The position numbers and the translations under genes are program-made. A DNA stretch of 64,000 nucleotides from the NCBI GenBank assembly GCA_002328835.1, contig DCWN01000042.1, positions 177,493-241,492 on the forward strand. Reading direction: 5' to 3'. Position 1 is the stretch's first letter, and each line of letters starts with the position of its first letter. The stretch comes from Acidobacteria bacterium UBA2161. GTDB lineage: Bacteria > Acidobacteriota > Vicinamibacteria > Vicinamibacterales > UBA823. Of the stretch, positions 17,416 through 36,226 are shown one piece after another. The notes below the pieces were generated by a model. That model was not told where the DNA came from. It was given only the letters and a program-made list of their open reading frames with translations, and did not search any database.

Positions 17416-17447
17416 CTGAGACTCCTCTGGCTTGCCGGTCCGCACGC

Positions 17448-17822: not shown

Positions 17823-17911
17823 GGTCTCCTGCGAACGAAGAATCATGACCTATATACACCCGACACCCCCGCCAGCGCGAGGCATGTCGGGCCGAACGAG
17901 TCAGCTTCCCC

Positions 17912-17917
17912 TATAAT
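17912..17917 (+). promoter_or_regulatory. Perfect TATAAT -10 box upstream of the DUF1080 gene
   Basis: TATAAT lies 27 nt upstream of ATG 17945 in a divergent intergenic region. Confidence 0.4.
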
Positions 17918-17944
17918 CAGGCGATTCCAGACGCCTCCCGACAG

Positions 17945-18757
17945 ATGAGATCAACGAACTGGCTCACCCTCGTTGGCGTTCCCGCGATCGTGGCTGCCGT
18001 GAGCGTGATCGCCCTCGCCGAAGACCGCGCGCGCCCGACCAGCCCGGCTCAGTCCGACTGGATCCAGCTCTTCAACAGCCGCGACCTGACCGGCTGGACG
18101 CCCAAGATCACCGGCTACGCACTCGGCGACAACTACGGTGAGACCTTTCGCGTTGCGGACGGCCTGCTCACCGTCGCGTACGACCAGTACGACGACTTCG
18201 CCGGCCGCTTCGGGCATCTCTTCTTCGAGCAGTCGTTCTCGCACTACCTGCTGCGGATCGAATACCGCTTCGTCGGCGAGCAGGCACCCGGCGGACCCGA
18301 GTGGGCGATCCGCAACAGCGGCGTCATGCTGCACGGCGAGCCGGCCTCGGAGATGGCGCTCGATCAGGACTTCCCGGTGTCGATCGAGGTGCAGTTTCTC
18401 GGCGGGACCGGCGAGGGCGAGCGCCCCACGGCCAACCTGTGTACGCCGGGCACCAACGTCGTCATGGCCGGCGAACTCGTCACGCGACACTGCACCAGCT
18501 CGTCGTCACTGACCTACGACGGCGACGAGTGGGTGACGGTCGAGGTGGAGGTGCGAGGTGACGAGGTGATCCGGCACCTGATCGACGGCGAGGCCGTCCT
18601 CGAATACGAGGCGCCGCAACTCGACGACCGCGAGGCGCATTCCCGCGACCTCGCCGGACCGCAGGGAGACCTCAGGCTGTTCGGCGGCACGATCTCGCTG
18701 CAGTCAGAGAGCCACCCGATCCAGTTTCGCAGGGTCGAACTTCGCCAGCTCCAGTGA
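17945..18757 (+). CDS. DUF1080 (3-keto-disaccharide hydrolase-like) secreted protein
   Basis: Signal peptide, then WIQLFNSRDLTGWTP, LLRIEYRF, NSGVMLHG, and ISLQSESHPIQFRRVELRQL, which is typical of DUF1080. Confidence 0.8.
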   Translation: MRSTNWLTLVGVPAIVAAVSVIALAEDRARPTSPAQSDWIQLFNSRDLTGWTPKITGYALGDNYGETFRVADGLLTVAYDQYDDFAGRFGHLFFEQSFSHYLLRIEYRFVGEQAPGGPEWAIRNSGVMLHGEPASEMALDQDFPVSIEVQFLGGTGEGERPTANLCTPGTNVVMAGELVTRHCTSSSSLTYDGDEWVTVEVEVRGDEVIRHLIDGEAVLEYEAPQLDDREAHSRDLAGPQGDLRLFGGTISLQSESHPIQFRRVELRQLQ

Positions 18758-18763
18758 GCGCCG

Positions 18764-20230
18764 CTACTCAGTTCGGTCGCCGATGACCCAGAGGTTGGCG
18801 CTCGAGCGGATGAACAGCTGCCCCTGTGACACCGCCACCGTGCTGAGGCAGTACGGCGTGCAGCCGTCGTCAAACGAATTCGACGAGAGGATCTCGAACT
18901 GCGGGCCTGACTGGTACACGGTCCAGAGCCCCTCCTCCTCGGTCGACACATAGATCTTGCCGTCGCCGAGGATCGGCGACGAGCTGTAGGTCCCGCTTGG
19001 CAGGCGCTCGGGACCGTAGACGATCTCGCCCGTGTCGAGCCGCAGACAGTAGACGACGCCGCGGTCGGTCACGACGTAGACATACTCGCCGTCGCTCACC
19101 GGCGTCGGCACGTCGGGCCCTCGATCGAACTCCCAGGCAATGTGGGTGTCACCGATGTCACCGGTGCCACCCGGCCGGATCGCGACCATCGGACGCACCC
19201 GGCTCGGCGCGACGATCAGGTCGCCCATGATCGTCGGCGACGCGACGATACGATACGCCCCGTTGTTCTCCGGATTGAGGACGTTCGCACGCCAGAGCTC
19301 CTCACCGGTATCGGGATCGTGCCCGGTGACCGCATCGCCGCCCGTGATCACGAGTTCCGTCTTGCCGTCGTACTCGAGCCAGACCGGCGTCGTGTAGGAA
19401 TCTGGGGACTCGCGCCGTGCCGTCGTCGGCCGCTCGATGTACCACAGCGTCTCGCCGGTCATCTTGTCGACCTTGACGAGGTACGACGGATCGTCGGTCC
19501 GCATGCCGTGGAGCACCTGCACGTAGAGGGCGTCGGCCTGCAGTAGCGGCGACGAGGCATATCCCCAGTTGAGCCCGAACGGGTAGTAGTCGTCCGAGAT
19601 GTTGCGCGACCAGATCTCGTTGCCGTCGAAATCAAACGCTTTCAGAGCGCCGACACCGGTCATCACCCAGACATGCTCGCCGTCAGTCACGGGCGACGGC
19701 GACGACATGTTCTGCTTCCGCTGCATGTTGTTGCCGTCGGCGACAAGCGCCTTCCAGGCCACGTCCTGCGTTCGGCGGTCGACCGCCCAGAGCTCGAGGC
19801 TGCCCGAGGCCGTTTCCGTCGCGATGTTGAGGAAGACCAGGTCGCCCCAGATGATTGGCGTTGACCCGCTGTAGGCCGGCAGCGGGAGCCGCCACGCGAT
19901 GTTCTCGGTCGTAAAGTCATCGCAGTTCGGCGGATGCGTCGGCACCGCCACCGAACGCCCGCCGCGTCGTCGCCCGCGCTGCCCTCGGCCGCGCTGTGGC
20001 TGGTTCCCCGGCAGGGTCAGGCTAGCCTGGACAATGCGAGGGCTCGCGGGCCCCGCGGATGCCTGGGGCACCGGGGCGCCGAGGCATTCGGCGCTCCAAC
20101 TCACCGGCAGGCTGGTTTCGGAGCTGACGCCGTTGTGGGTCGGGCCGCGCCAGTGTGGCCAGTTGTCGGCCAGGAGCGACGATCCGGCCGCGACCATCAG
20201 CGCACATACCACTCCGAGCAATCTCCGCAT
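18764..20230 (-). CDS. PQQ-like / BamB-like beta-propeller repeat protein, secreted
   Basis: Signal peptide, then NWPHWRGPTHNGVS and repeated propeller blades. It contains an Arg/Gly-rich insert (QPQRGRGQRGRRRGGR). Confidence 0.7.
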   Translation of the reverse strand: MRRLLGVVCALMVAAGSSLLADNWPHWRGPTHNGVSSETSLPVSWSAECLGAPVPQASAGPASPRIVQASLTLPGNQPQRGRGQRGRRRGGRSVAVPTHPPNCDDFTTENIAWRLPLPAYSGSTPIIWGDLVFLNIATETASGSLELWAVDRRTQDVAWKALVADGNNMQRKQNMSSPSPVTDGEHVWVMTGVGALKAFDFDGNEIWSRNISDDYYPFGLNWGYASSPLLQADALYVQVLHGMRTDDPSYLVKVDKMTGETLWYIERPTTARRESPDSYTTPVWLEYDGKTELVITGGDAVTGHDPDTGEELWRANVLNPENNGAYRIVASPTIMGDLIVAPSRVRPMVAIRPGGTGDIGDTHIAWEFDRGPDVPTPVSDGEYVYVVTDRGVVYCLRLDTGEIVYGPERLPSGTYSSSPILGDGKIYVSTEEEGLWTVYQSGPQFEILSSNSFDDGCTPYCLSTVAVSQGQLFIRSSANLWVIGDRTE

Positions 20231-21601: not shown

Positions 21602-22903
21602 CTACACGCCCTGGGCGACGTACTTCTTGACGGCCGCGACTCCCCGCTCGACCTCCGACTCGAGGTTGTAGAAGTGCGGTGAGAATCGCAGGCCACCGCG
21701 ATCCTGGCCGCCCCGGGTCGCGCAGCCGATCCGGTCGTTCTCGTAGAGCGCCGCCGAGAGCCGCCGAACATCGAGATTCCCCGGAAGGAACGAGACCACC
21801 GCCGCGCGGCGTGAGGGATCGGGGCTGGTCCAGACCTGAACACCATCGATCTTGTTCAGTTCCTCGATCGCCAGCGACGCCAGGTGCCGCGAGCGCTGCT
21901 CGATCGCCTGACGGCCAATGCGGGTCTGAAGCTTCAAGGCCTCACCAAACGCGATGATCGCCGGCTCGTCCCGCTGGCCAAAGCCTTCGTGCGTACGGGA
22001 GATTCCGACGCGGCCCGAGTAGGCGCTGAGGATGACCGGCCAGATCTTGTCGTGCGACCGCTGGTTCACGAACAGCACCCCCGCCTCCTTGGCGCCACAG
22101 GGCCACTTGTGGGCACTGCCGGTGTAGAAGTCGGGCTGGATGTCGCTCAGGTCGACGTTGAGCAGACCGAAACTCTGGGCGCCATCGAGGAGCGAGAGGA
22201 CGTCGTTCTCACGCGCGAGCCGGCACAGCTCGCGCGCCGGCATCAGGTCACCGACCGAACTGGTCAGATGCGTCAACGCCAGGACGCGGGTCCGCGGCAT
22301 CAGCGCCGCGCGCACCGCCTCGATGTAGTACTCGGGCCCTGGATGCGGACTAGGATTTGGCAGCTCGTTGATCGTGAAACCGAAGCGCTCACTCTTGCTC
22401 TCCCACGCTCGCTTGTTGCTCGGGTGGTTGTCGGCAAACAGGATGACCTCGTCGCCCTCGTCGAGATGCACGCCGCTCGACACCATGTTGTTCGCTTCGC
22501 TGGTGTTGCGCGTGATGACGATCTCCTCGGGCGTGACCCGCAGGAAGTCGGCAAGGAGCTGGCGCGTGTCCTCCTTGCCCTGCCCCATCTTCACGCGGTT
22601 CTGCGGCGACGGATCGCGGTCCATGTCGCGGGTGTTCTCGTACATGGCGTCGAGCGCGGGCGCGGACGACGGGCACAGGTTGGCCGCATTCATCACGCCA
22701 AGGTCGCGGGGCATGACGAACTGGTCGCGCACCGCGCCCCAGAACGATTCGGTCGGCGCGGCGGGGGTTTGCGGCAGCGCCTGCGCCGGGCCGGTCCAGG
22801 GTCGCCCGGCCACGAAATACGAGGCGGCGCCACCCACCGTCACCATGCGCGCGAAATCCCGCCGACTCAGACCGTTCGAACGTCCCTCGTGACTGGCTGC
22901 CAT
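21602..22903 (-). CDS. Class-V aminotransferase-fold PLP enzyme with Tat leader
   Basis: ATG 22903 is preceded by GAAGGAGGA. Tat leader LSRRDFARMVTVGGAASYF. PLP-lysine context GSAHKW. The body is isopenicillin-N-epimerase/cysteine-desulfurase-like. Confidence 0.75.
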   Translation of the reverse strand: MAASHEGRSNGLSRRDFARMVTVGGAASYFVAGRPWTGPAQALPQTPAAPTESFWGAVRDQFVMPRDLGVMNAANLCPSSAPALDAMYENTRDMDRDPSPQNRVKMGQGKEDTRQLLADFLRVTPEEIVITRNTSEANNMVSSGVHLDEGDEVILFADNHPSNKRAWESKSERFGFTINELPNPSPHPGPEYYIEAVRAALMPRTRVLALTHLTSSVGDLMPARELCRLARENDVLSLLDGAQSFGLLNVDLSDIQPDFYTGSAHKWPCGAKEAGVLFVNQRSHDKIWPVILSAYSGRVGISRTHEGFGQRDEPAIIAFGEALKLQTRIGRQAIEQRSRHLASLAIEELNKIDGVQVWTSPDPSRRAAVVSFLPGNLDVRRLSAALYENDRIGCATRGGQDRGGLRFSPHFYNLESEVERGVAAVKKYVAQGV

Positions 22904-22988
22904 GACCACTCCTCCTTCGGTGACCCACAAACCCGAACGCACCTTTATACACCCGCCGCGGCCGCCCGGGCAGCGCCTCGCCGCCCCC

Positions 22989-24050
22989 TCAGAACCCGGT
23001 CGGCCGCACCCAGAAGCTTTCCTCCCAGACGCCGTCCGGGGGGATGCTCTGCAATTCCGCGTAGACGCCGCGCTCGGCGAGATTGAGCGCGTTGCTGATG
23101 CCGGCCATCGGCTCGAAGCAGACGAAGTTGCGATCCTGATCGGGCGAGGCGGGCTTCGGAGCCCAGACCACCGCCGCGCGCCAGTCGCGGCCGAAGAGGA
23201 CGTCGACCTGCTGGCGGCGGCCCTTCACCGACATCACCGCCCGGCCGTCGGCGTCACGCACGAGATCGGCGAACACCTCGTCCAGTTCGTGCTCCCGCAG
23301 CGCGATCGCTCCGGGATCCGGAAACAACCGCTCGATCGGCTCAGTCTCCCCCGTCGGCAGCTTCCGGTCGTCGAGCAGCCATCGGGTCCGGGCGCCGACC
23401 GAGATCGTCCACTCGTCACGACGCGAATCGGTGAGCTGGAAGTAGGGATGAAAGCCGATCGCGACGGGCATCGGCGCTTCCGACAAATTGTGCAGCCGCG
23501 TGGCGACCTCGAGCATCCCGTCTCCGAGCCGGTAGGTCATCTCGATCGTGTGCGCGAATGGGAACTGCGAGATCCACGCCGGGTGCTTGTAGAACTCGAG
23601 CCGGCTCGTTGCCCACGCCGACGTCGCGTCGGCGGCCGCCTCCACCAGCTGCCACTCGGCGGTCGCCAGAAACCCGTGGATCGGAATCTCCCCGCGGACG
23701 TTGCCGAGCCCCATGTCGAACGCATACCGGCGTCCGTTAGCGTAGAACGCCTGCTCGTCGAGGCGGTTCGCCCAGGGGCCCATGAAGGGGATGCCGCCCA
23801 GGCCGGGCCGTGCCGCGAACTCGGCGGGCGACGAGTATGGCCACCAGACGACGGGTTCGCCGTTCACCGTCAGGGCGACGCCCAGATTGCCAACCCCTGG
23901 TGCCAGTGAGACCGCCATCCCCGTCCGCGCGTCCTCCAGCCGGACGACATCGCCGGCCGCTCGCGCCGAGAACGGTTGGGCCCACACCGACGGGCAGATC
24001 GCGAGGGCAAGCACGAAGATGGACGCAAGGCCGAGATCTCGGACCGTCAT
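22989..24050 (-). CDS. Aldose 1-epimerase (mutarotase) family protein with signal peptide
   Basis: Signal peptide LGLASIFVLALAICPSVWAQ. IPFMGPWANR, IHGF and GFHPYFQL are typical of the aldose-epimerase fold. Confidence 0.75.
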   Translation of the reverse strand: MTVRDLGLASIFVLALAICPSVWAQPFSARAAGDVVRLEDARTGMAVSLAPGVGNLGVALTVNGEPVVWWPYSSPAEFAARPGLGGIPFMGPWANRLDEQAFYANGRRYAFDMGLGNVRGEIPIHGFLATAEWQLVEAAADATSAWATSRLEFYKHPAWISQFPFAHTIEMTYRLGDGMLEVATRLHNLSEAPMPVAIGFHPYFQLTDSRRDEWTISVGARTRWLLDDRKLPTGETEPIERLFPDPGAIALREHELDEVFADLVRDADGRAVMSVKGRRQQVDVLFGRDWRAAVVWAPKPASPDQDRNFVCFEPMAGISNALNLAERGVYAELQSIPPDGVWEESFWVRPTGF

Positions 24051-24111: not shown

Positions 24112-24750
24112 ATGATCGCAGCGGAAGGGGTAGTCGTGCGAACGACGATCGTGGGCCTGCTGTTGCTCGTCGCCGGCGGTGTTGCCCTGTCGAGCCAGAC
24201 CCGGACACAGGTGGCCGGCTACGCCGACGACCAGATGTACGCCTTCGAGAATTGGGCCGCCTCGGCGCCGATGCCGTGCGCCGACGCCATAGAGGCCGAC
24301 GGCATCCGGCCCAGCTCGGTGCCCGTCGCGACCGAAACGGGATGGTCGCATCCGCACCAGGCCGATCCGTTGCTGACGCTCTTCACCGTGCCGAACGGCT
24401 ACGACTTCGAGACCAGCGGCGGCGCCACAATCGCCGCGGGCGGCCTGGATCTCTATTCGGTCGAAGACGGCGTCCCCGGGTGGGCCGATTCGCTGATGGT
24501 GACCAGCCTGAACCGCGGCGCGATCTATCGGGTTGGCCTGAGCGACGATGGCCGGCGGGCGCCCGATGCGCCGGTCGAGATGTTCAAGTCGACGAATCGC
24601 TACCGGGACCTGGCAATTCATCCTGACGGACGTGCCGTCTACATCGTCACGGACACCCGCGGCCCCACACGCGACAGCTCCGGCGCCGGCACGCGGGAAC
24701 TGGCGAATCCGGGCGCGCTTCTCGAGTTCACGTACGTCGTCCCAGAGTAA
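24112..24750 (+). CDS. C-terminal fragment of a soluble quinoprotein glucose dehydrogenase homologue (possible gene remnant)
   Basis: In-frame ATG at 24112 of track ORF 23782..24750. The tail MFKSTNRYRDLAIHPDGRAVYIVTDTRGP...LANPGALLEFTY closely resembles the sGDH (GdhB) C-terminus. The N-terminal two thirds of the propeller are absent, replaced by a short hydrophobic segment. Confidence 0.5.
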   Translation: MIAAEGVVVRTTIVGLLLLVAGGVALSSQTRTQVAGYADDQMYAFENWAASAPMPCADAIEADGIRPSSVPVATETGWSHPHQADPLLTLFTVPNGYDFETSGGATIAAGGLDLYSVEDGVPGWADSLMVTSLNRGAIYRVGLSDDGRRAPDAPVEMFKSTNRYRDLAIHPDGRAVYIVTDTRGPTRDSSGAGTRELANPGALLEFTYVVPE

Positions 24751-24788: not shown

Positions 24789-25613
24789 CTACAGTTCTGC
24801 TCTGTTCACGATGAAGGCCTGCGGATTGCACTGGTACGTGCCGACGTTCCCCTCTTCGTCGATCTCCACGATGCGATAGCCGCGATAGTTCGTGCCCCAG
24901 TCGCCGCCGATGTGGCCATCGAACAGGTAGGCTCTCTCGTTGGCATACATGAAGCCGTCGACATCGTGATCATGACCGTGGAAGACGGCCGCGACGTTCG
25001 AGGTGGTCTCGAGAAGCGACGACGCCTCCAGGCAGTCGACACCGTACCTCGTCACCTTGCGCTGGCTGATGTGGAGAAATGCGAAGATGTGCCGCTTGTT
25101 TCGATAGTGGGATAGCCGCTCCTCGAGCCAGTCGACGTTCACGCAGAGATAGTCCCCATCGATATTCGATGTCGTGCCGAGCAGAAAGGCACAGTCGGCC
25201 TGTTCGAAGTCGTGGTTCTCGCCGTATCCCCACACCTCCTCCCAGTGCGACGCGGTCGTCATGTCGTGGTTGCCTTTGGTGACGAAGTAAGGGGCCTCGA
25301 GGCGCTCGTAGTACTCTCGCACCTGCGGCAACAGCCGCGGCTCGTTGTGAATCAGATCGCCGTTGAAGACGACGAAATCGAGGCCCTTGCTCCGGTGCTC
25401 GTCGTTGAGCCACGCCATCATCTCTTCGTGGAACCTCACGTAGTTCGTGTTCGCCTGACCGAAGTGGCCATCGGATGCGACCGCGAATCGAAGCGGCGAC
25501 GACACTTGGGCTCGTCCGCCACTCGCGGCCGGAGCGGCTCGGATGAATGGTGACGCGCACACCGCACCAGAGATCGCCTTGATGAAGGTTCGCCTGTCAG
25601 ATCGTCTTGGCAT
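24789..25613 (-). CDS. Calcineurin-like metallophosphoesterase with Tat-type leader
   Basis: An internal ATG at 25613 gives MPRRSDRRTFIKAISGAV. Motifs VASDGHFG, NGDLIHN, GNHD and GHDHD. Confidence 0.75.
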   Translation of the reverse strand: MPRRSDRRTFIKAISGAVCASPFIRAAPAASGGRAQVSSPLRFAVASDGHFGQANTNYVRFHEEMMAWLNDEHRSKGLDFVVFNGDLIHNEPRLLPQVREYYERLEAPYFVTKGNHDMTTASHWEEVWGYGENHDFEQADCAFLLGTTSNIDGDYLCVNVDWLEERLSHYRNKRHIFAFLHISQRKVTRYGVDCLEASSLLETTSNVAAVFHGHDHDVDGFMYANERAYLFDGHIGGDWGTNYRGYRIVEIDEEGNVGTYQCNPQAFIVNRAEL

Positions 25614-25664
25614 AACCTTAGGAATAGCAGAGGACACGCGTTCCCAGCAATAGGGAGTCTCACC

Positions 25665-26864
25665 ATGTCCGAGAGCGGATTCGACCGTCGCGCCTTCCTG
25701 GCCTCCGGGCCCGCGGCCCTCGTGGGTCTCAATGCCCTGGGCGTCAACGCCCAGGAAGCCCCGGTCAGCCCCACGGATGCAATCACGGTCACGAATATCG
25801 AAACCTTCGTCCTGACGAACTCCTGGGTCTTCGTGAAGATCTCCACCGATGCCGGCATCACCGGCTGGGGCGAAATGCTCAAGGACGACGCCAAGGCCTG
25901 CGCCGCGGGCGCGCTCGAGGTCGGCGACTACCTGATCGGGAAGGACCCCCGCCCCGTCGTGCACCACTGGCAGGCGATCCACCGGGGCGCGTTCTACCGG
26001 GGTGGTCCGATCAAGACGGCCATCTCGTCCGGTATCGACCAGGCGCTCTGGGACATCACCGGCAAGTGCTATGGCGTGCCCGTCTACCAACTCTTCGGCG
26101 GGCCGACGCGCGACCGGGCGAAGGTCTACGGCACCGTCAGTGAGGAAACCGGCGTCACGGCGATGAAGGTCGGTCCGAGATCAGCCCGTCAGCCTTTCAA
26201 ATACACGGAAGGCCGGAAGTTCATCGAGGAGGTCGCCGAACGCTTCGGGGCGCTGCGCGATCAGCACGGCATCGGCGTGGACATCGGTCTCGATTTTCAC
26301 GGCGCCGTTCAGCCGACCACAGCTAGCCTGCTCATCAAAGCCCTCGAGCCCTACCATCCCTGGTTCTACGAGGAGATCGTCCAGGCGCTCAATATCGACG
26401 TCATGGCCGACCTCGCCCTGAAGACGAACATCCCGCTGGCTACCGGTGAACGCGTGTTCACCAAGTGGGGGTTCAGGGAGATCCTGGAGAAGAGGGCCGC
26501 GATGATCCTGCAGCCCGACGTCTGCTACGCCGGCGGCATCACCGAGCTGAAGATCATCGCCGGGATGGCCGAGGCCTACTACGCGCCGATCGCGCCGCAC
26601 AATCCGAATGGCCCATGCTCGCTCGCCGCTAGCTTGCAGCTGGCCGCGTGCATCCCGAACTTCATGGTTCAGGAGCGTGGCGACCGAGAGTACGACCTCC
26701 TCGCCGAGCCCATGCCCGCCGTCGTGGACGGCTACCGGCCGATCCCGACGGGCCCCGGCCTCGGCATCACCATCGACGAAGACAAGCTGATGGCGGAGGT
26801 CGGCGAACCCAGGCCGTACACCGCTCAATTCGACTCCGATGACGGCTCGGTCGTCGACTGGTAG
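25665..26864 (+). CDS. D-galactonate dehydratase-like enolase-superfamily enzyme with an N-terminal Tat leader
   Basis: SD GGGAG 7 nt upstream. Leader MSESGFDRRAFLASGPAALVGLNALGVNAQEA. The body is colinear with DgoD (GWGE, GDYLIGKDP, AFYRGGP, GIDQALWDITG, DFHG, YEEI, ATGER, QPD..AGGITE, APHNP). Confidence 0.8.
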   Translation: MSESGFDRRAFLASGPAALVGLNALGVNAQEAPVSPTDAITVTNIETFVLTNSWVFVKISTDAGITGWGEMLKDDAKACAAGALEVGDYLIGKDPRPVVHHWQAIHRGAFYRGGPIKTAISSGIDQALWDITGKCYGVPVYQLFGGPTRDRAKVYGTVSEETGVTAMKVGPRSARQPFKYTEGRKFIEEVAERFGALRDQHGIGVDIGLDFHGAVQPTTASLLIKALEPYHPWFYEEIVQALNIDVMADLALKTNIPLATGERVFTKWGFREILEKRAAMILQPDVCYAGGITELKIIAGMAEAYYAPIAPHNPNGPCSLAASLQLAACIPNFMVQERGDREYDLLAEPMPAVVDGYRPIPTGPGLGITIDEDKLMAEVGEPRPYTAQFDSDDGSVVDW

Positions 26865-28392
26865 AACGCTCGTCGGTGCGGCCATCCTCTGCGGGATGGT
26901 GCTGGTCGCGGCCGGCGTCCTCGCGGCGTGGCAGCCGCAAGCACCGACAACGCCCCGCAACCGTTTCGAGGCGGCAGCCGCCCTCTTCGAGCGGGAGTGC
27001 GCGGCATGTCACGGCTCCGATAGCTCTGGCGGTCGTGCGGTCAGCCTGTTCGATCAGGCCTGGCTCGATTCGACCGACGACGACGCCATCGTCACGGCAA
27101 TCGAGAACGGCGTGCCCGACACCGAGATGGCACCGTACCGCGATCTGCTGGAGGCCCCGGACGTATGGGCGCTCGTCCAGTTCATCCGTACCCGTGCCGG
27201 CAGTTTCGTCGAAGCGCCTGCGTATGTAGCCCGCGCGGACGGCGAAGTCGTCGACTCGGAACGCCACACATTCAGGGTCGACACGGTCGTCGGCGGGCTG
27301 GAAACGCCCTGGGCCCTGGTGTTCCTGCCCGACGGGCGGATGCTGGTGACCGAACGGCGCGGGACCCTGCGCATCGTCGCCAACAATGAGCTCTCCGAGC
27401 CGGTGACAGGCACCCCCGAGGTCTGGGAGCGTCAGGACGCCGGTATGCACGACGTCGAGATTCATCCAGAGTATGCCGACAACGGCTGGATCTATCTGGC
27501 GTATTCGGAGGTCGCGCCCGGCCATACGCCGTCCGCGTCCGAGGCGACGCCAGGCTCACCCCCGGGGCGTGAACCGCCGAGTCCACCGAACATGCAGGTA
27601 TTCATTCGCGGCCGGATCGACGACGACAACAGGTGGGTCGACCAGGAACTGATCTATCGCGCCTCACTCGATCTCTATACCTCCAGCGACACGCACTACG
27701 GCACGCGGCTCGTCTTCGACGATGCCAACCACCTCTTCTTCGCGATCGGCGAGCGCGGCGTGATGGAACACGCGCAGGACCTGTCGAGCCCGCTGGGCAA
27801 GATTCATCGCGTCAACGACGACGGCTCGATCCCCGACGACAATCCGTTCGTCGGCGAGGGCGCCGCCGTGCCCTCGATCTGGAGCTACGGCCACCGGAAC
27901 CCCGAGGGCCTGGCCTGGCACCCGGAGACCGGCGCGCTCTGGGAATCGGAGCACGGGCCGCGAGGCGGTGACGAGATCAATCTCATCGAACCCGGACACA
28001 ACTACGGCTGGGGCGTCATCTCGTCCGGCATCCAGCGGGGCATCACCGAGGCGGCCCGCGACGGCATGGAGTCACCGATCGTCTACTACACGCCGACGCT
28101 CGCCCCAGCGGGGATCGCGTTCTATACAGGCAATCCATTTTCGGAATGGACGAACAGCTTGTTGGTCGGCAGCCTGTGGGGCCAGGAGCTCCGACGACTC
28201 GAGATCGTCGGCCGGGAGGTGACGCACCAGGAGGTGTTGTTCGCCCAGTTCGGCCGCGTGCGGGACGTCGTCGTCGGCCCCGACGGCTACGTCTACGTCG
28301 CGCGGCAGGATCCGACCGGCGGCAGCACCGGCGTGTCGCTGACCGCCTCGACACCGGGCTCGGTGATCAGACTCGTGCCCGTCGAGGACTAG
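26839..28392 (+). CDS. Cytochrome c fused to a PQQ-dependent (sGDH fold) sugar dehydrogenase
   Basis: N-terminal anchor/signal, haem motif CAACHG, then VVGGLETPWALVFLPDGRMLVTERRGTLRIV, GERG, GHRNPEGLAW, GGDEIN and NYGWG. The start overlaps the upstream gene by 26 nt. Confidence 0.8.
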   Translation: MTARSSTGRTLVGAAILCGMVLVAAGVLAAWQPQAPTTPRNRFEAAAALFERECAACHGSDSSGGRAVSLFDQAWLDSTDDDAIVTAIENGVPDTEMAPYRDLLEAPDVWALVQFIRTRAGSFVEAPAYVARADGEVVDSERHTFRVDTVVGGLETPWALVFLPDGRMLVTERRGTLRIVANNELSEPVTGTPEVWERQDAGMHDVEIHPEYADNGWIYLAYSEVAPGHTPSASEATPGSPPGREPPSPPNMQVFIRGRIDDDNRWVDQELIYRASLDLYTSSDTHYGTRLVFDDANHLFFAIGERGVMEHAQDLSSPLGKIHRVNDDGSIPDDNPFVGEGAAVPSIWSYGHRNPEGLAWHPETGALWESEHGPRGGDEINLIEPGHNYGWGVISSGIQRGITEAARDGMESPIVYYTPTLAPAGIAFYTGNPFSEWTNSLLVGSLWGQELRRLEIVGREVTHQEVLFAQFGRVRDVVVGPDGYVYVARQDPTGGSTGVSLTASTPGSVIRLVPVED

Positions 28393-28544
28393 GCGTTCAC
28401 CCTATTCCGGCCTCAGCCCCGGACGGCCACGATGAGAAGACGGCCCTTCCAGTAGCCATCGTGGGCACCGGCTGTAATCCTGGGCGCTTCGTGCTACGGT
28501 ATCGATCCGCGTCGATCGGATCTGTCATACCCAAGGGGGTGGCC

Positions 28545-29693
28545 ATGTCATCGTTTCGAGTCCTGAAGCCCGTCTTGTTCATCTCTGCCGTCTTCCTGCT
28601 GGCCGGCTGCGCCTCCGAATCGGGTGCGCCGGAGGCGATACCGGAGGCCGCGGCGCCCGTCGCCAGCGGCAGCCTGATCACAGGCGAGGGTCTGCCGAAC
28701 CCGGCGCCGAACGAGACACGGAACTGGGGCACCCTGCCCGAGGGCCGCGAATGGGGATCGACGGCCGGCATCGACATCGACCCGATCGACGGGCACATCT
28801 GGGCCTACGAGCGCTGCGGCGCGGGCGCGCTCAGCGGGGGCCGGGTCGACTGCGAGACGAACACGGTTGCCCCGATCTTCAAGTTCGATCGGAATACCGG
28901 TGAGATCCTGGCCAACATCGGCGCCGACGTCTTCGTCACGCCGCACGGCATCCACGTCGACGACGATGGGAACGTCTGGGTGACCGACTTCGCCGGCAAC
29001 CAGGCAGGCACCCGGGGACACCAGGTTCACAAGTTCAGCCCCGACGGCGAACTGCTGATGTCACTTGGTGTCGCGGGCCAGCCGGGCAGCGAGCCTGGCC
29101 AGTTCAATCAGCCCAACGACGTGATCGTTGGACCGGACGGCAGTATCTACGTGAGCGACGGACACAACGGGCAGAACCGCCCGCCGCACCCGGAGGGTTC
29201 GACCGGGCGGATCATCAAGTTCGACGCCGAGGGCAACTACCTGACGGAGTGGGGCCAGATCGGCTCGCTGCACGGCGAGTTCCGCACCCCACACGCCCTC
29301 GAGTTCGACGATCAGGGTCGCCTCTGGGTCGCCGACCGCGGGAACCACCGGATCGAGATCTTCGACCAGGAAGGGAACTACCTCGAGTCGCGCTACGCCT
29401 ACGGACGGATCAGCGGCATCTTCATCCATGAGGGGATGCTCTACGCGATCGACTCCGAGTCGAGCCCGAACAACCACTTCCCGTGGACGAACGGCGTCCG
29501 GATCGGCCCCCTCGACGAAGACGTCGTCACCGGCTACATCCCGCCGCACGACGCGGAGAGCCGGCCGTACCAGGGCGCGGCGGGTGAAGGTGTCGCGGTC
29601 GACGCGGATGGCAACGTGTACGCCGCCGAGGGTCCGAACTCGCTGCGTTTCGCCGGCGGCGCGTTCACGAAGTACTCGGTCGCCGGGCAGTAG
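28545..29693 (+). CDS. NHL-repeat / peptidylglycine-amidating-lyase-like beta-propeller lipoprotein
   Basis: In-frame ATG at 28545 of track ORF 28146..29693, preceded by AAGGGGG. Lipobox FLLAGC. Blades TPHGIHVDDDGNVWVTD, QPNDVIVGPDGSIYVSDGH, TPHALEFDDQGRLWVADRGNHRIEIF. Confidence 0.7.
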   Translation: MSSFRVLKPVLFISAVFLLAGCASESGAPEAIPEAAAPVASGSLITGEGLPNPAPNETRNWGTLPEGREWGSTAGIDIDPIDGHIWAYERCGAGALSGGRVDCETNTVAPIFKFDRNTGEILANIGADVFVTPHGIHVDDDGNVWVTDFAGNQAGTRGHQVHKFSPDGELLMSLGVAGQPGSEPGQFNQPNDVIVGPDGSIYVSDGHNGQNRPPHPEGSTGRIIKFDAEGNYLTEWGQIGSLHGEFRTPHALEFDDQGRLWVADRGNHRIEIFDQEGNYLESRYAYGRISGIFIHEGMLYAIDSESSPNNHFPWTNGVRIGPLDEDVVTGYIPPHDAESRPYQGAAGEGVAVDADGNVYAAEGPNSLRFAGGAFTKYSVAGQ

Positions 29694-29695
29694 AC

Positions 29696-31222
29696 GTGGC
29701 GCCCGGCGAACCCCGGTCGTCGTCGATTCCGCCGACCGACCCCGACCGGCGCCGGCTGCTCGTCGGCGCCGGTGCCGGCGCCGCCACCATGCTGTTCGAT
29801 CACGGCGGCGTGCACGCGCAGACACAGGGCGACACCGTCGTCTTCACGCACACCACGGTGGTGAACGCCGATGGCGTGCAGAACGACGTGGCCCTTGCCG
29901 TCGAGGGCAGCGTGATCGTGGCGATCGGCCCTACCGACGACGTCCTCCAGGCGTATCCGCGGGCCGAGGTGTACGATGGCCGGCGCAAGGCGCTCTTTCC
30001 GGGCCTCATCAACTGCCACGCGCACATGGGGGCCGTCCTGGCCCGCGGCTTCAACGAGGACTTCGGCTTCCCGAACTCCTATCGCCTGGCGCTCTCCCCC
30101 GGGAGCCTGCTCGAAGGCGAGGAAGCCACCTTGATGGTCACCGTGGCGGCACTCGAAGCGATTCGCACGGGGACGACAACCATCGTCGAATACACGGGGA
30201 ACATCGCACGGGACGCCGGGGCGCTGGCCGATAGCGGCCTCCGCTGCGTCCTCGCCGAATCGGTCCGGGACAGCGAGAACGTCGCCGGCCCGCTCTCTCC
30301 GGAACGGCTCGCCGCGAGCGAGACGCCGCGGTTCTCGCCCGACCGGCGGAACGCGGGGTTGCAGCGGATCGAGGACCTCTTCAGCGCGTGGCACGGCGCG
30401 CGGGATGGACGGATCTCGGTCTTCCCCGCAGCCGCGCTCACCGAAACATCGTCACCGGAACTCCTGCAGGCCGTCCGCGCCTTCGCCGAGGCGCACGACG
30501 TCGGCTACACGATCCATCTGAACCAGAGTCGTGCCGAGTTCGAGTTCATGCAGCGCTATCACGGCGTTCGGCCGACGGCCTACCTCGACCAGCACGACTT
30601 CCTCGGCCCCCGATTGTTCGCGGCGCACGCCCGGTACGTCGACGCGGGCGAGATCGCGATGCTGGCCCGCTCCGGGACGATCATCTCGCATCAGGCGGCC
30701 ATGGCGGCGAACCGCGGGGTGAGCCCGCCGGTCCCAGCGCTGCGGGCCGCCGGCTGCCCGATCGCACTCGGTACCGACAACAACACGAACGACCTGTTCG
30801 AGGTGATGCGGACCGCGCTTCGAACGGAACGGATCCGGCGCGACGACGAGCGGCCCGGCCTCCAGCCGCAGCCTGAGGACATCCTCGCCGACGCGACCGA
30901 GAACGGCGCGCGCGCCGTCCACCAGCGTGAGAGCCTTGGAACGCTCGAGGTCGGCAAGAAGGCCGATCTCCTCGTGCTGGATGCGCTGAAGGCCCACCTG
31001 GTTCCGGCCGGCCGGATCGCCTCGGCGTGGATCCACAACGGTCAACCGTCCGACATCGAGTCCTCGATGATCGACGGCCGCTTCGTCATGCGCGACCACC
31101 GCGTTCTGACGATGGACGAGGACGCCGTCCTCGACGAGGCCGACCGGGTCGGGCGCCGCATCTGGAACCGGGTGCAGGCGGAGAGCCCGGTCAGGGTGCC
31201 CCGCCTCCCGCGTCCGGTCTGA
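29696..31222 (+). CDS. Amidohydrolase-superfamily (ATZ/TRZ-like) protein with Tat leader
   Basis: Leader DPDRRRLLVGAGAGAATMLF. Metal motif GLINCHAHMG. The core is deaminase/chlorohydrolase-like. It starts 2 nt after the previous stop. Confidence 0.7.
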   Translation: MAPGEPRSSSIPPTDPDRRRLLVGAGAGAATMLFDHGGVHAQTQGDTVVFTHTTVVNADGVQNDVALAVEGSVIVAIGPTDDVLQAYPRAEVYDGRRKALFPGLINCHAHMGAVLARGFNEDFGFPNSYRLALSPGSLLEGEEATLMVTVAALEAIRTGTTTIVEYTGNIARDAGALADSGLRCVLAESVRDSENVAGPLSPERLAASETPRFSPDRRNAGLQRIEDLFSAWHGARDGRISVFPAAALTETSSPELLQAVRAFAEAHDVGYTIHLNQSRAEFEFMQRYHGVRPTAYLDQHDFLGPRLFAAHARYVDAGEIAMLARSGTIISHQAAMAANRGVSPPVPALRAAGCPIALGTDNNTNDLFEVMRTALRTERIRRDDERPGLQPQPEDILADATENGARAVHQRESLGTLEVGKKADLLVLDALKAHLVPAGRIASAWIHNGQPSDIESSMIDGRFVMRDHRVLTMDEDAVLDEADRVGRRIWNRVQAESPVRVPRLPRPV

Positions 31223-31523: not shown

Positions 31524-32969
31524 TCAGGTGGTCTTGCCGAGCATCTGCTTGAGCCGGACCATCAAGCCGCCGGAGTGCGTCGGCGCCGCGGGCGCGTCCG
31601 GGTCTGGCTCCTCCTGGACGGTGACGGCCGGAAGGTCGAAGATCAGCGGACCCGACCGGTAGGTAATGACAGCTCGTTCGACGATGCTCTGCAGCTCGCG
31701 CACGTTGCCCGGCCAGTCATACGCGAGCAGCTGACGCTCGCCGGGTTCGGTCAGCGCTGGACAGGTGCGCTTCAGCGTCTCGGCCGCCTCCTGTAGATAG
31801 TAGGCCGCCAAGACGGAGATGTCGCCTCCCAGACGTCGCAACGGCGCAAGCTCGATCGAGAAGACGCTGATCTGTTCGTAGAAATCTTGACGCACACGAC
31901 CGGCTGCGACTTCCTGCTTGAGGTCGCGGTTCGTCGTCGCGACTACCCGCAGATCCACCGGGCGCTTCCGCTCCTCCCCAAGCCGTGCGCACTTCCCCGC
32001 CTGCAGCACCTCGACGAGCTTGCTCTGCATGTCGGGTGGAATCTCGCCCACTTCGTCCAGGAACAGCGTCCCCTTGTCGGCCAGTTCGAAACGGCCGGCG
32101 TGATCGCGCAGCGCGCCGATGAAGGTACCCCTCGCGTAGCCGAAGAACTCACGTTCGAACAGCTCAGCGGGCATCGTACCGCAGTTCACCTTGATCAGCG
32201 GCTTCCGCTTTCTCGGACTCAGGGTGTGGAGCGTGCGGGCGACCAACTCCTTTCCGGTCCCCGTCTCGCCACTGACGACGACATTCGACCGGGTCCGCGC
32301 GACCGATTCGATCGCTCGGCGCACACCCTTAATCGCCTCCGATTCGCCGAGAATGGCGCCGAACTTGTGCTCGGTGGTGATCTCTTCCTGCAGGTGAGAG
32401 TTCTCTTGCTCGAGCCTCGACCTCCTGGCCGCCAATTCCTCGTGGGCGAGCGTGTTCTCGACCGCGAGGGCGACCTGGCGCGCCACTTCCTCCAGGAAGC
32501 CGGTCTCGGCGTCGGAGTACCGATCGGGGAGGCGGCTTCCGACCTCAACACTGCCAAAGGCCTCACGCCGTCGCAACAGCGGCACGGCCACGTAGGACCG
32601 GATCCCTCGCTCGAGCAGACGATCTTCCAGTCCGACGCGGTGTTCCGCCTGAAGGTCCCGGCGGACCACCGGTCGCTTCTCGTCGTACAACCGCGCCAGG
32701 TGGCTCTCGCGGCGGGGGAAACGTCGCTCCGACTTCGGGACTGGCTCCGATTCCGAGGGATCGAAGATGGCCCGGACGTTGAGGCTCTCCTTGTTCTGAT
32801 CGAGCACGGTGAGACTGCCACGATCGAACGGAACGGCCCGGCCGAGGGCTTCGAAGATGGCGTCGTACAGCGACGGCTTGTCGAGGTGGGCGATGATGGC
32901 GGTACTGATCTCGAGGAGCTTCCCTAGTCGTTCCTCCCCCGAGCCGACCTCCTCAGCAGGCACCGCCAT
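31524..32969 (-). CDS. GAF-domain, sigma-54-interaction-type AAA+ regulator lacking a recognisable DNA-binding HTH
   Basis: In-frame ATG at 32969 of track ORF 31524..33302. GAF-like N-terminal half. Walker [10 protein letters not shown], Walker B LFLDEVGE, sensor II GNVRELQ. The GAFTGA position reads GTFIGA (32112-32129). Only about 45 residues follow the AAA+ core, with no Fis-type HTH. Confidence 0.75.
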
Positions 32970-33031
32970 CAGCGGGACTCTACCACCTGACGCGCCGCCC
33001 CACGGATTCTCCCACCGGCGGTCGCCGGCGG

Positions 33032-34258
33032 CTAGGGCTGCGACTCGGCCGGTGGCTGGATCTTCACGAGCCCCACGGTGTTCGAACTGCTCTGGTGAAT
33101 GAGCAGATCTCCGTCCTGGGTCACCCATGTCCGCCTGATGATGCCGACGCCCGAGGGGATCGCCCAGCTCTGGAATACCTCGGTCTCGGGATCGAAGCGC
33201 ACCAGCGCCTCCGGCCGCATCGCCGACTCGTTGTACCAGATGACGTCGTCGATGATGGCCACGGCGTAGGGGTGCGAGGTCGGCCCGCTGGGCGATGGCC
33301 ATTCCTTGATCTCGCCCGTCTCGGGGTTCAACCGGCCGAGCCGGCCCATCGTCGAGTTCCCATACCAGACCATCCCGTCGCTCGAGAGGGCAAGGCGGCG
33401 AATGCGCGTCTCGGCCTCGGCGATCTCGTAGAACCGGATCTCCATCGTGTCCGGATCCATCGCACCAATCTTGTTCGTGCCGTTGTAGGCGATCCAGAGC
33501 GTGCCATCCGGGCCGACCTGAATCCCGTAGGGGCGGGGCTCGGTCACAATCTCGGTGAGCTCGCCGCTCTCGGGGTCGAGGCGGCCGAGCATGCCGGCCT
33601 GCTGCGCCGTGAAGTAGAGCTGACCGTTGGGGTGGAACAGGCCGGTGTGCGGGTCGCGCGCCTCGGTCTTGTACTCGGTAATCACGCCGGTCCTCGGTTC
33701 CAGCCGGCCGAGCGTGGCGTTGCTGTTCCCGGTGTACCAGATGCTGCCGTCCTCATCGGCGATGAGGCTGTGAGGCCGCGCCTCGGGCGGAAGGTGGTAC
33801 TCCTCCATCTCCATCGTCTCCGGATCGATCCGGCCCGCGAGGCTCGCCCACATCCCGGTCCACCAGATCGATCCGTCCGGCGCCTCGATCGGATCCCGGC
33901 ACCGCTGCCCGAGCGTCGGGACCGTCCACTCGACGATCTCGATCTCGGTGTCGCCGGGAATCAGCGTCGGACGCCGGCCCGGCTTCTCGGGAAAGTGCGT
34001 GGCCAGATAGTCGGCGAGAGTCTCCTCTTGCGGCTCCGCCAGCTCCACCATCGTGGCCATGATCTTCCGCCATTCCTCCGCCGTGTCGTAGCCCTGGGAG
34101 CGCGTGATCGTGTTGAGCCCGTGGCAGCTCCCGCAGGCCGCCTCCGCCAGGAGCTTGCCCGCGCCGTCCGGAAGGGAGACCGGCCCCCGCTGGGCCTGGG
34201 CTGGCGCGGCGGTGCCGAACGCGAGAACCGTCAATGCAATAAGGCTACGAATCCACAT
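33032..34258 (-). CDS. Cytochrome c fused to a Vgb (streptogramin-lyase)-like beta-propeller
   Basis: Signal peptide MWIRSLIALTVLAFGTAAPAQAQ. Haem motif CGSCHG. Five or more repeats of the type DGSIWYTGNSNATLGRLEPRTGVITEY. Confidence 0.7.
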   Translation of the reverse strand: MWIRSLIALTVLAFGTAAPAQAQRGPVSLPDGAGKLLAEAACGSCHGLNTITRSQGYDTAEEWRKIMATMVELAEPQEETLADYLATHFPEKPGRRPTLIPGDTEIEIVEWTVPTLGQRCRDPIEAPDGSIWWTGMWASLAGRIDPETMEMEEYHLPPEARPHSLIADEDGSIWYTGNSNATLGRLEPRTGVITEYKTEARDPHTGLFHPNGQLYFTAQQAGMLGRLDPESGELTEIVTEPRPYGIQVGPDGTLWIAYNGTNKIGAMDPDTMEIRFYEIAEAETRIRRLALSSDGMVWYGNSTMGRLGRLNPETGEIKEWPSPSGPTSHPYAVAIIDDVIWYNESAMRPEALVRFDPETEVFQSWAIPSGVGIIRRTWVTQDGDLLIHQSSSNTVGLVKIQPPAESQP

Positions 34259-34369
34259 GAGCATCCCCTTTCCGTCCACTCAGGACGGGCGTCTGCCACC
34301 CACTGGAGCAGCGTACAATGTTCGTCGTAGCGCGGCAATCGGGAGTTCACGCCGGGCCGCGTGGTCACC

Positions 34370-35041
34370 ATGAAACGCTCCACGATCAACGCTCGAATCC
34401 GTGCCGCCATCGACCTGTTCGACACCCACCGGTTCGCCCTCCCGCCGTTCGCCTCGTGGAGCCCGGCGGCCTGGAGAGAGGCCGGCACGAAAGCCGACGA
34501 CATCCGGCGGTGCCGCCTCGGGTGGGATCTGACCGACTTCGACCGCGACGACTTCACCCGATGCGGCCTGCTGCTCTTCACGTTGCGGAACGGCCGGGCG
34601 ACCGCAAAGCCGATCGAAGGGGTGAAGCCCTACGCCGAGAAGATCATGATCGTCGGCGACGCGCAGGTCACACCCTGGCACTACCACCTGGTCAAGATGG
34701 AGGACATCATCAACCGCAGCGGCGGACGACTCGTCGTTGACGTCTGCCGGGCCGACGTGGAGGGCCGGTTGACCGACGACGCCGTCGAGGTCTCGATCGA
34801 CGGTGTTCGCCGCTCGGTCGCGGCCCGCGGCCGGATCGAGCTCTCGCCTGGCGAGAGCATCACGCTGCCGCCCAGGCTGGCCCATCAGTTCACAGCCGTC
34901 GGCGGCGCGGTGGTCGCCGGCGAGGTCTCGTCGCTGAACGACGACGAGACCGACAACTACTTCATCGATCCGGTTAGTCGGTTCCCGTCCATCGAGGAAG
35001 ACGAGCCGGCTGAGTACCTGCTCTGTACCGAGTACTCCTAG
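34370..35041 (+). CDS. D-lyxose/D-mannose-type cupin sugar isomerase
   Basis: MKRSTINARIRAAIDLFDTHRFALPPFASW..., GWDLTDF, YAEKIMIV, TPWHYH, and a C-terminal LLCTEY. It is colinear with D-lyxose isomerases and has no signal peptide. A TACAAT box lies at 34314-34319. Confidence 0.75.
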   Translation: MKRSTINARIRAAIDLFDTHRFALPPFASWSPAAWREAGTKADDIRRCRLGWDLTDFDRDDFTRCGLLLFTLRNGRATAKPIEGVKPYAEKIMIVGDAQVTPWHYHLVKMEDIINRSGGRLVVDVCRADVEGRLTDDAVEVSIDGVRRSVAARGRIELSPGESITLPPRLAHQFTAVGGAVVAGEVSSLNDDETDNYFIDPVSRFPSIEEDEPAEYLLCTEYS

Positions 35042-35044
35042 GAA

Positions 35045-36226
35045 TCACGGGTCCAGGGCCAGCCCGCCGTGCGAGGCGATGTCGCGAAGCCGCGCGGCAT
35101 GGCTCGGATTCGCGCCGATGATGTCGCGCAGGCGCTGCCGGACCTGCGCCTGCTCCGCTGCCGCCATCGCACCGGCCGCCGTGACCGCATCCGTCGCGGC
35201 GGCGTAGCAATCGTCGGGATACGTGATCGATCCGCACTCGGCCGTCAGATTCGCCAGGACGCCGGCCGCGCCCAACCGTGACGTCGACGCCCCACCCGAA
35301 CCGGTGCGGCCGAAGCGCTCTTCTGCCAGTTGAATCTCGGCCTGCGCACCTCGACGGATGTTCGCCGCTTCGGTGCCCGCCTGGAAACAGGTGAACGCCG
35401 GCCGGTCCGCCCAGCGGAGCGGCCCGCAGGCGTGAATCCCCGCCTCGAGAGCCGCGTCGGCGACTTCAGTGATCAGCGCCTCGTATTCGGCGTCGCCCTG
35501 CCCGAAGCCGGAAAAGTTTCCGAGGTCGCCGCTTGCGGCGAATAGTCCCGTGACACCGGGCAACTTCGCAATCTCGCGTGCGTTCTCGACACCCTCGAGC
35601 GTCTCGATCATCAGGAACAGGACGACGTTGTCGTTCCAGGTCTGCCGGTACCCGCCGGGCACGTCGTTCCACAATTCGCTCGGCCCCTGCCCGCCACCGG
35701 AGCTGCGCCGGCCGATCGGCGGAAAGTAGGTCCAGTCGATGGCGGCCTGCGCCTCCTCGACGCTGTCGACGGTCGGCACCACGATGACGAGCGAGCCCAT
35801 GTCGGTGGCATGTTGGATTTCACGCTCGTCCGCGTAGGCGACACGGACCCCTGGCGCGGCCGGGCCTGGGCAGGTCCGCCAGAGACGCGCCACCTGCTCC
35901 CAGGAGATCGCCTCGTGCTGCATCTCCACCCAGAGGAAGTCGTAGCCGGCGCCGGCCATGGCGCAGTAGGTGCGCGCATCGGTGGCACGGATGGTGCCGC
36001 CGATCATCGGGCCGCCGGCGATCAGCTTCCGCTTCGCCGGATTCCAGATCTCGGGATGCTCCCCGTCGGGCAGCTCGAAGCGCGCACCGTAGTCGAACTC
36101 CTCGGCTCTGAACCGTTGATCCGTCTGGGACGACTGGGCCCCCGCCGGACCAGCGCCCAGGCTGAGGCCGACCGCCACCGCGACGCACCCGACACCGACG
36201 AACCCGAATCTGTTTCCAAGTAGCAT
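35045..36226 (-). CDS. HpcH/HpaI-family aldolase with signal peptide and C-terminal extension
   Basis: ATG 36226 is preceded by GAGGA. Signal peptide FVGVGCVAVAVGLSLGAGPAGAQ. Core GYDFLWVEMQHEAISWEQ, VRVAYADEREIQHATDMG, PPIGRRS, LMIETLEGVENAREIA. Confidence 0.7.
   Translation of the reverse strand: MLLGNRFGFVGVGCVAVAVGLSLGAGPAGAQSSQTDQRFRAEEFDYGARFELPDGEHPEIWNPAKRKLIAGGPMIGGTIRATDARTYCAMAGAGYDFLWVEMQHEAISWEQVARLWRTCPGPAAPGVRVAYADEREIQHATDMGSLVIVVPTVDSVEEAQAAIDWTYFPPIGRRSSGGGQGPSELWNDVPGGYRQTWNDNVVLFLMIETLEGVENAREIAKLPGVTGLFAASGDLGNFSGFGQGDAEYEALITEVADAALEAGIHACGPLRWADRPAFTCFQAGTEAANIRRGAQAEIQLAEERFGRTGSGGASTSRLGAAGVLANLTAECGSITYPDDCYAAATDAVTAAGAMAAAEQAQVRQRLRDIIGANPSHAARLRDIASHGGLALDP

Follow-up and report, generated by a model that had tools for sequence, protein, structure and literature searches.

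The closest described relative of the protein discussed here is DgoD, the galactonate dehydratase of the De Ley-Doudoroff pathway (known from Escherichia coli and, as structure 3rr1, from Ralstonia), a two-domain member of the enolase superfamily with one Asp and two Glu residues as metal ligands, a His-Asp pair as base and a further His as acid. To our knowledge, all characterised acid-sugar dehydratases of this superfamily are cytoplasmic, and so are all characterised non-phosphorylative acid-sugar routes, which include the non-phosphorylative Entner-Doudoroff pathway, the Weimberg and Dahms pathways and the L-rhamnonate route with its YfaU aldolase. Outside the cytoplasm, pyrroloquinoline quinone (PQQ) dehydrogenases oxidise aldoses in the periplasm (Acinetobacter sGDH and the Gluconobacter and Pseudomonas systems), and the aldonate is then imported or oxidised further to keto-acids; we know of no periplasmic dehydratase or aldolase step described for these systems. 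The glucose-fructose oxidoreductase of Zymomonas mobilis, of the Gfo/Idh/MocA family, is a sugar enzyme exported by twin-arginine translocation (Tat). Here we analyse a 64,000-nt stretch of the genome of Acidobacteria bacterium UBA2161 (contig DCWN01000042.1; hereafter the window), and in it a gene, dgoD, for a DgoD-family protein that starts with a twin-arginine (RR) leader. On sequence grounds we lean, by a little more than an even chance, towards a Tat-exported periplasmic acid-sugar dehydratase that usually forms a stand-alone step between the two membranes.

Like DgoD, the window protein has the two-domain architecture and the complete set of metal ligands, base and acid. It differs in adding a 29-residue RR leader and about 10 mature N-terminal residues (APxxPxD), in being less than 50% identical to the solved and canonical forms, with another loop after the GWGE motif, and in its predicted location, which is periplasmic, whereas DgoD is cytoplasmic. 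Moreover, no dgoK, dgoA or dgoR was found among the annotated neighbours of the dehydratase genes studied, not every neighbour being annotated. The Zymomonas enzyme provides a precedent for a 'cytoplasmic-type' sugar enzyme with a cofactor or metal that is folded and then exported by Tat, and Tat-leader Gfo/Idh/MocA genes of its kin lie near many of the dehydratase genes; its fold and chemistry are unrelated, however, as it is an NADP-bound oxidoreductase and not a dehydratase. As in the periplasmic PQQ systems, the sGDH-type dehydrogenase encoded next to dgoD, which is fused to cytochrome c and is accompanied by an exported mutarotase, would produce periplasmic aldonolactone. With the non-phosphorylative routes the window shares the proposed order from aldose to aldonate, to 2-keto-3-deoxy acid and to pyruvate plus aldehyde, as well as an HpcH-family aldolase, but the linkage of the steps in the window is not conserved.

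The Pfam matches of the dehydratase correspond to the N-terminal capping domain (MR_MLE_N, PF02746, 3.9e-18) and the barrel domain (MR_MLE_C, PF13378, 2.3e-55). On the NCBIfam model NF010624 ('galactonate dehydratase') it scores 356.3 bits, above the cutoff of 311, with the profile starting at residue 41, while its scores on ManD and the remaining NCBIfam models are far below their cutoffs. The closest solved structure is that of Ralstonia DgoD (3rr1; E 4e-75, query residues 40-399), and the protein is 100% identical to one from a Vicinamibacterales metagenome-assembled genome (MAG) that is named 'galactonate dehydratase'. In E. coli DgoD, we take the metal ligands to be D183, E209 and E235, the acid to be H185 and the base to be H285 with D258. 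The corresponding residues D210/H212, E236, E262, D285 and H312 of the window protein align to the E. coli enzyme at a constant offset of +27 and are invariant across 34 homologues, the equivalents being D183/H185, E209, E235, D258 and H285 in what we take to be the numbering of Wieczorek et al. 1999. The preliminary description had called the protein colinear with DgoD, with metal ligands and catalytic His kept, and the domains, NF010624, 3rr1 and the +27 alignment all agree with this. The protein is thus, as judged from its residues, a DgoD-family member with the full catalytic set, and dehydratase chemistry is predicted because the DgoD residues are intact.

The leader is part of the open reading frame (ORF) from its first possible start. 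The ATG at 25665 is the first start codon after an in-frame stop at 25551 and has a GGGAG motif 8 nt upstream, and the next Met is residue 71, so that the earlier statement that no internal Met would remove the leader was correct. Within the leader, only codon 20, a GTG, could serve as an alternative start; it lies inside the hydrophobic core and is without a Shine-Dalgarno sequence. The leader, MSESGFDRRAFLASGPAALVGLNALGVNA, is followed by QEAP after the predicted cleavage site and shows the three-part Tat layout over its 29-30 residues, namely an n-region with D-R-R-A-F-L-A, an 18-residue uncharged core and the cleavage motif V-N-A before QE. It fits the Tat pattern, in which an S/T-R-R-x-F-L-K-like motif is followed by a core of moderate hydrophobicity and a cleavage site of the AxA type. 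A congener (locus L086) retains the leader, with AAA before QE.

Conservation of the leader was assessed in a sample built by scanning one genome per species, in which at least 575 related loci were found and 80 kept. Together with five further contigs these gave 85 loci (83 distinct, as two pairs are near-identical), and at all of them the upstream reading frames were re-read to score the leader. The preliminary description had set beforehand that orthologues lacking the leader would refute its proposal; an RR leader is present in about 65 of the 83 distinct loci. By group, over all 85 loci, it was found in Planctomycetota (9/9), Verrucomicrobiota (7/7), Bacteroidota (11/11), Acidobacteriota (39/40) and the alphaproteobacterium Rhizomicrobium (1/1), and in none of the Latescibacterota (0/11), Gemmatimonadota (0/4), Poribacteria (0/1) and unclassified (0/1) loci. 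All leaderless loci start directly at M-x-x-x-E-A-P-I-G-P-N. Two Latescibacterota loci that a regular expression had flagged as leader-bearing proved to be read-through of upstream sequence. Among the best 120 database homologues, which are 76-86% identical and come from Planctomycetota, Verrucomicrobiota, Bacteroidota and Acidobacteriota, at least 100 have an RR leader, about 10 further entries are gene calls with the start placed within the leader, and the leader is missing from eight. In these leaders the RR is followed by a core free of charged residues and by a cleavage site made of small residues, frequently with a basic residue just before the site. Across the 34 homologues (alignment A3), conservation of R8 and R9 is at least 90% whereas the remaining leader positions vary, a pattern that looks like that of a functional signal. 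When 1.84 billion representatives at 50% identity were searched, the clade collapsed to essentially one cluster; of the best 150 representatives 110 were full-length, and RR leaders occurred in 16 of these, the nearest outgroups included. Two observations, that the leader is conserved and that leaderless orthologues contrast with those that carry it, lead us to infer that the dehydratase is exported by Tat to the periplasm.

The window dehydratase shares its leader style with Verrucomicrobiota, Planctomycetota and Bacteroidota and not with the other Vicinamibacterales or Acidobacteriota copies (compared with L052 and L059). In a neighbour-joining tree, which is rough and not robust, it likewise groups with Planctomycetota-Verrucomicrobiota-Chlamydiota (PVC) and Bacteroidota sequences and not with other Acidobacteriota, and the leaderless forms are scattered. 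This grouping suggests horizontal transfer, by which the window gene may have been acquired, as well as leader loss.

At the 85 loci the nearest neighbours of the dehydratase gene are mostly variable. One recurrent arrangement is seen in 13 Acidobacteriota loci, where the nearest upstream neighbour encodes a CarboxypepD_reg and outer-membrane barrel protein of about 1100-1350 aa, mostly on the same strand at a distance of a few to about 150 nt. In 3 Bacteroidales loci the gene directly downstream encodes a major facilitator superfamily (MFS) protein of the D-galactonate-transporter subfamily. Sulfatase genes make up about 3% of the ORFs and about 6% of the nearest neighbours; they occur within 10 kb in 28 of the 83 distinct loci (30 of the 85 fetched), are the nearest neighbours in 8, and are found within 10 kb at 27 of 65 leader-bearing but only 1 of 18 leaderless loci (p = 0.004, confounded by phylogeny). 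This linkage is only suggestive as a functional clue. Similarly, a crude signal-peptide count gave 37% of the neighbours for leader-bearing and 25% for leaderless copies (p = 6e-4, also confounded by phylogeny). DUF1501/PSCyt pairs and Tat-leader Gfo/Idh/MocA oxidoreductases recur, and GH127, rhamnogalacturonan lyase, rhamnosidase and RhaA are occasional neighbours. The leaderless Latescibacterota copies sit among signal-less genes for short-chain dehydrogenase/reductase, Gfo/Idh/MocA, HpcH aldolase, bicupin and class IV aminotransferase proteins.

One Bacteroidales MAG (JBBRVC010000056.1; L060:798-11113) has a co-directional array consisting of, in order, a GH127 lipoprotein, a GalM mutarotase with a lipoprotein signal, an RraA-like pyruvate aldolase with a Sec signal, a signal-less MR_MLE protein, a Tat-leader DgoD-family protein (330 bits on NF010624), a Tat-leader ManD-like protein and the Tat-leader orthologue of the window dehydratase. 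That is, four enolase-superfamily genes stand side by side, three of them with Tat leaders, and the presence of an exported mutarotase and aldolase beside them makes a periplasmic acid-sugar route plausible in principle. In L079 the gene order is sulfatase, Tat-leader UxuA-like dehydratase, sulfatase, orthologue and Nramp. RR-leader UxuA-like proteins (mannonate dehydratase / xylose-isomerase-like TIM barrel) near a Tat-leader DgoD-like gene were seen at L079:7025-8146 and L033:6745-8037, and represent a second, unrelated dehydratase fold bearing an export signal. A gene for an Nramp-family divalent-metal transporter directly adjoins the Tat-leader dehydratase in two Bacteroidota loci (L005:8723-9970 and L079:11120-12394).

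Several points weigh against a periplasmic DgoD-type step, and rival explanations draw on some of them. The curated Tat hidden Markov models TIGR01409 and PF10518 matched neither the dehydratase's own leader nor the PVC- and Acidobacteria-type leaders, in a run on ten leaders whose sensitivity is too low to settle the case of the window leader; the homologous leader of the Bacteroidota orthologue P0085 passed TIGR01409 (26.8 bits, cutoff 16.7). Many Acidobacteriota leaders also have a short core interrupted by Asp. If the N-terminal extension did not function as an export signal, the protein would be cytoplasmic or membrane-tethered and would belong to an ordinary De Ley-Doudoroff-type route, which would fit the missed model matches, the existence of leaderless and presumably cytoplasmic orthologues at 76-82% identity, and a role of the DgoT-like MFS of Bacteroidales in importing galactonate and not the product. 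This explanation, which we consider very unlikely, has to be set against the persistence across phyla of the arginine pair, within a three-part leader that has an AxA-type site, while the rest drifts, the absence of any alternative start codon with a Shine-Dalgarno sequence, the lack of dgoK/dgoA-type genes among the neighbours that are annotated, and neighbours richer in exported proteins than those of the leaderless orthologues.

Other points concern the substrate. The NF010624 score is only 45 bits above the equivalog cutoff for DgoD, identity to solved DgoD is below 50%, and the loop after GWGE reads MLKDDAKA where 3rr1 has PVIEGRAR. An AlphaFold2 model built from 34 close homologues (pLDDT 59.5, pTM 0.43) was too poor and was not used. 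Furthermore, most dehydratase loci offer no pathway context, and the neighbourhood statistics are confounded by phylogeny. An exported enzyme with a different substrate, for example an acid sugar from sulfated or acidic glycans, or with a related reaction of the enolase superfamily (cycloisomerisation or epimerisation, for instance), would account for the divergence from solved DgoD and for the recurrence of sulfatases and the occasional glycan-related neighbours named above; the several distinct Tat-leader paralogues side by side in L060 imply distinct substrates. Yet the best curated model is that of DgoD, with a score over its cutoff, none of the DgoD catalytic residues is missing, the general-acid His included, the nearest type of transporter for the inner membrane belongs to the galactonate/hexuronate family, and the 3,6-anhydro-galactonate cycloisomerase 5olc is a much weaker structural match (2.4e-31). 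We keep such alternatives in mind as unlikely but worth real weight, and retain a DgoD-type dehydratase as the favoured assignment, with D-galactonate as the default guess for its substrate from homology.

The preliminary description had gone further and proposed that the genes around dgoD encode a complete periplasmic non-phosphorylative route with electrons going to haem c (Table 1). In full, such a route would run from the mutarotase through the cytochrome-c-fused sGDH, the NHL propeller as lactonase and the DgoD-like dehydratase to the HpcH aldolase. Each of these families is present with a plausible export signal, and dgoD and the sGDH gene abut or overlap. The 26-nt overlap reported for the two genes holds only if sGDH starts at 26839 (517 aa); most public gene calls use the ATG at 26896 (498 aa), which leaves a 31-nt gap, and the congener cannot settle the start because the region overlaps dgoD. 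No terminator-like site lies between the two genes, which may be co-transcribed in the source genome. The spacings of 51 nt between the phosphoesterase gene (ATG at 25613) and dgoD and of 2 nt between the propeller and amidohydrolase genes were correct as given.

Table 1. Features of the window around the dgoD gene (coordinates in the window).
Feature	Coordinates	Strand	Evidence
Mutarotase (aldose 1-epimerase), Sec signal peptide	22989..24050	-	Pfam Aldose_epim 6.6e-26
Short sGDH C-terminal fragment	about 24112..24750	+	Weak Pfam GSDH match
Metallophosphoesterase, RR leader (SDRRTFIKA), divergent	24789..25613	-	Metallophos 5.8e-13
Tat-type leader of dehydratase, residues 1-29	25665..25751	+	Sequence reading
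Predicted DgoD-family (enolase superfamily) acid-sugar dehydratase precursor, 399 aa, RR leader	25665..26864	+	Pfam, NCBIfam, PDB matches
Cytochrome c (CAACH) fused to sGDH-type PQQ sugar dehydrogenase	26839 (or 26896)..28392	+	Pfam GSDH 5.9e-114, Cytochrome_CBB3
NHL-repeat beta-propeller lipoprotein, lipobox LLAGC	28545..29693	+	NHL 4.5e-19
Amidohydrolase, chlorohydrolase/deaminase type, RR leader (DRRRLLVGAGAGAA)	29696..31222	+	Amidohydro_1 9.6e-32
GAF/sigma-54 activator	31524-33302	-	
Cytochrome c/Vgb-like propeller	33032..34279	-	
D-lyxose isomerase-like cupin, no signal	about 34370..35041	+	
HpcH/HpaI-family aldolase, Sec signal peptide, N- and C-terminal extensions	35045..36226	-	HpcH_HpaI 6e-14

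Conservation of the gene cluster, in contrast, was not found. A tblastn search with all window neighbours against the 85 dehydratase loci (10 kb on each side) detected no sGDH, propeller, amidohydrolase, phosphoesterase, mutarotase or lyxose isomerase, and HpcH relatives only beside leaderless Latescibacterota copies. A family-level re-check with phmmer agreed, adding the mutarotase of L060 and, in one Planctomycete locus, an HpcH relative that lacks a signal peptide; its exceptions were L060, L014 and the Latescibacterota loci. In the reverse test, which started from sGDH and covered 80 metagenomic loci, only the congener L086 was syntenic (proteins 83-95% identical), and the remaining 79 had no dehydratase, amidohydrolase or phosphoesterase. 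The linkage of sGDH and dehydratase is thus lineage-specific, being seen in the window and the congener only, and the full secreted pathway proposed from the neighbours is not conserved.

Some parts of the proposal stood up on their own. An exported mutarotase lies directly beside sGDH in 12 unrelated metagenomic loci, and the HpcH aldolase has a Sec signal peptide in 120 of 120 orthologues (a clade of about 380-400 aa, P0271-P0390), so that the claim of exported flanking steps holds for these proteins but not for their linkage to the dehydratase. To find a class II pyruvate aldolase with an export signal is itself unusual. On three long contigs the neighbours of aldolase orthologues were unrelated, with no dehydratase or lyxose isomerase among them. 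Retention of the gene order in L086, the conserved mutarotase-sGDH pair, the reality of the exported aldolase clade and the independent, analogous exported mutarotase/aldolase/dehydratase array in L060 all speak for a full route, but its genes are spread on both strands over 13 kb and are interleaved with the amidohydrolase, phosphoesterase, sigma-54 activator and Vgb-like genes, of which the first two have no part in the proposed sugar-acid route. The lactonase assignment is speculative, as it depends on a sub-threshold SGL match of the NHL lipoprotein (a whole-protein score, with no single stretch above threshold). In addition, signal peptides are found in about 25 of the roughly 50 window genes, so that a run of exported-looking neighbours is weak evidence for a pathway. 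Although coherent on paper, a complete aldose-to-pyruvate route in the window is improbable in our view, because its genes are unlinked in any other lineage sampled.

Several further features of the window deserve mention. Its G+C content is 64-69% (2-kb windows), and it matches a Vicinamibacterales MAG that is found again in many public assemblies. The ORF at 24112-24750, of about 205-212 aa, is transmembrane-like at its N-terminus, and of the sGDH domain it has the C-terminal part only; it adjoins the mutarotase gene and has no counterpart in L086. Since a full sGDH adjoins the mutarotase in the 12 other loci, this ORF may be the remnant of an sGDH partner. Public gene calls place the phosphoesterase start downstream of the RR leader (210 or 238 aa) and so omit it. 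The ATG of the NHL lipoprotein at 28545 was confirmed. For the amidohydrolase, every NCBIfam match is under its cutoff, and its leader scores slightly below the TIGR01409 cutoff (14.5 against 16.7 bits). The sigma-54 activator gene, located between the amidohydrolase and cytochrome c/Vgb-like genes, is missing from the otherwise syntenic congener. A window search for sigma-54 promoters, prompted by this gene, gave 48 matches where 47 were expected, none of them well placed, and a scan of 24-32 kb for sigma-70 promoters and terminators found none above chance. Upstream, at 16135-20230, genes for an FAD oxidoreductase (DAO), a small cytochrome c, a signal-peptide DUF1080 '3-keto-disaccharide hydrolase' and a PQQ_2 propeller form a set that recalls periplasmic glycoside 3-oxidation systems. 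A class V aminotransferase encoded at 21602-22942 (minus strand) has a leader that passes the curated Tat model (20.4 bits, cutoff 16.7), and its second-best NCBIfam match, far under cutoff, is the periplasmic pyoverdine-tailoring enzyme PvdN.

In the favoured reading, the Mg2+-dependent dehydratase would fold, and probably oligomerise, in the cytoplasm and would be moved in the folded state by Tat to the periplasm, with cleavage after V-N-A. There it would remove water from an aldonate to give a 2-keto-3-deoxy acid by the DgoD mechanism, in which the His312-Asp285 pair would act as base, His212 as acid, and D210, E236 and E262 would hold Mg2+. Across bacteria this would be a stand-alone periplasmic step and not that of a fixed-operon member, frequently encoded among sulfatases and other exported enzymes, and placed between outer-membrane uptake (by the TonB-type barrel in many Acidobacteriota) and inner-membrane import (by the DgoT-like MFS in Bacteroidales). 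In the source genome, the cytochrome-c-fused sGDH could feed the dehydratase with aldonolactone or aldonate made from aldoses, a local coupling that would be biochemically sensible but lineage-specific.

Proteins of this large and highly conserved clade are already present in databases under the name 'galactonate dehydratase'. In a full-text literature search, no paper on an exported bacterial dehydratase of the enolase superfamily was found. As the leader is present here and in most of the related bacteria sampled, sugar-acid dehydration probably also takes place in the periplasm. A broader and more tentative idea, which we hold to be possible although the balance is against it, is that Tat-leader DgoD-, ManD- and UxuA-like dehydratases, exported HpcH and RraA aldolases and mutarotases together make up an undescribed periplasmic acid-sugar catabolism in Acidobacteriota, Planctomycetota, Verrucomicrobiota and Bacteroidota. 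It would be the first example of an enolase-superfamily reaction beyond the cytoplasm, and the conversion of sugars or sugar acids that enter through TonB-type barrels, perhaps as far as cleavage to pyruvate, would precede their passage across the inner membrane.

Should the leader be functional, sugar acids would be dehydrated in the periplasm by hundreds of species from soil and sea, among them members of these four phyla. Models of carbon flow from polysaccharides would then change, the transporters to be expected would be importers of 2-keto-3-deoxy acids and not of aldonates, and the annotation of such genes would change as well. The leader-bearing and leaderless orthologues, which are more than 75% identical, would form a natural pair in which to ask why this step crosses the membrane.

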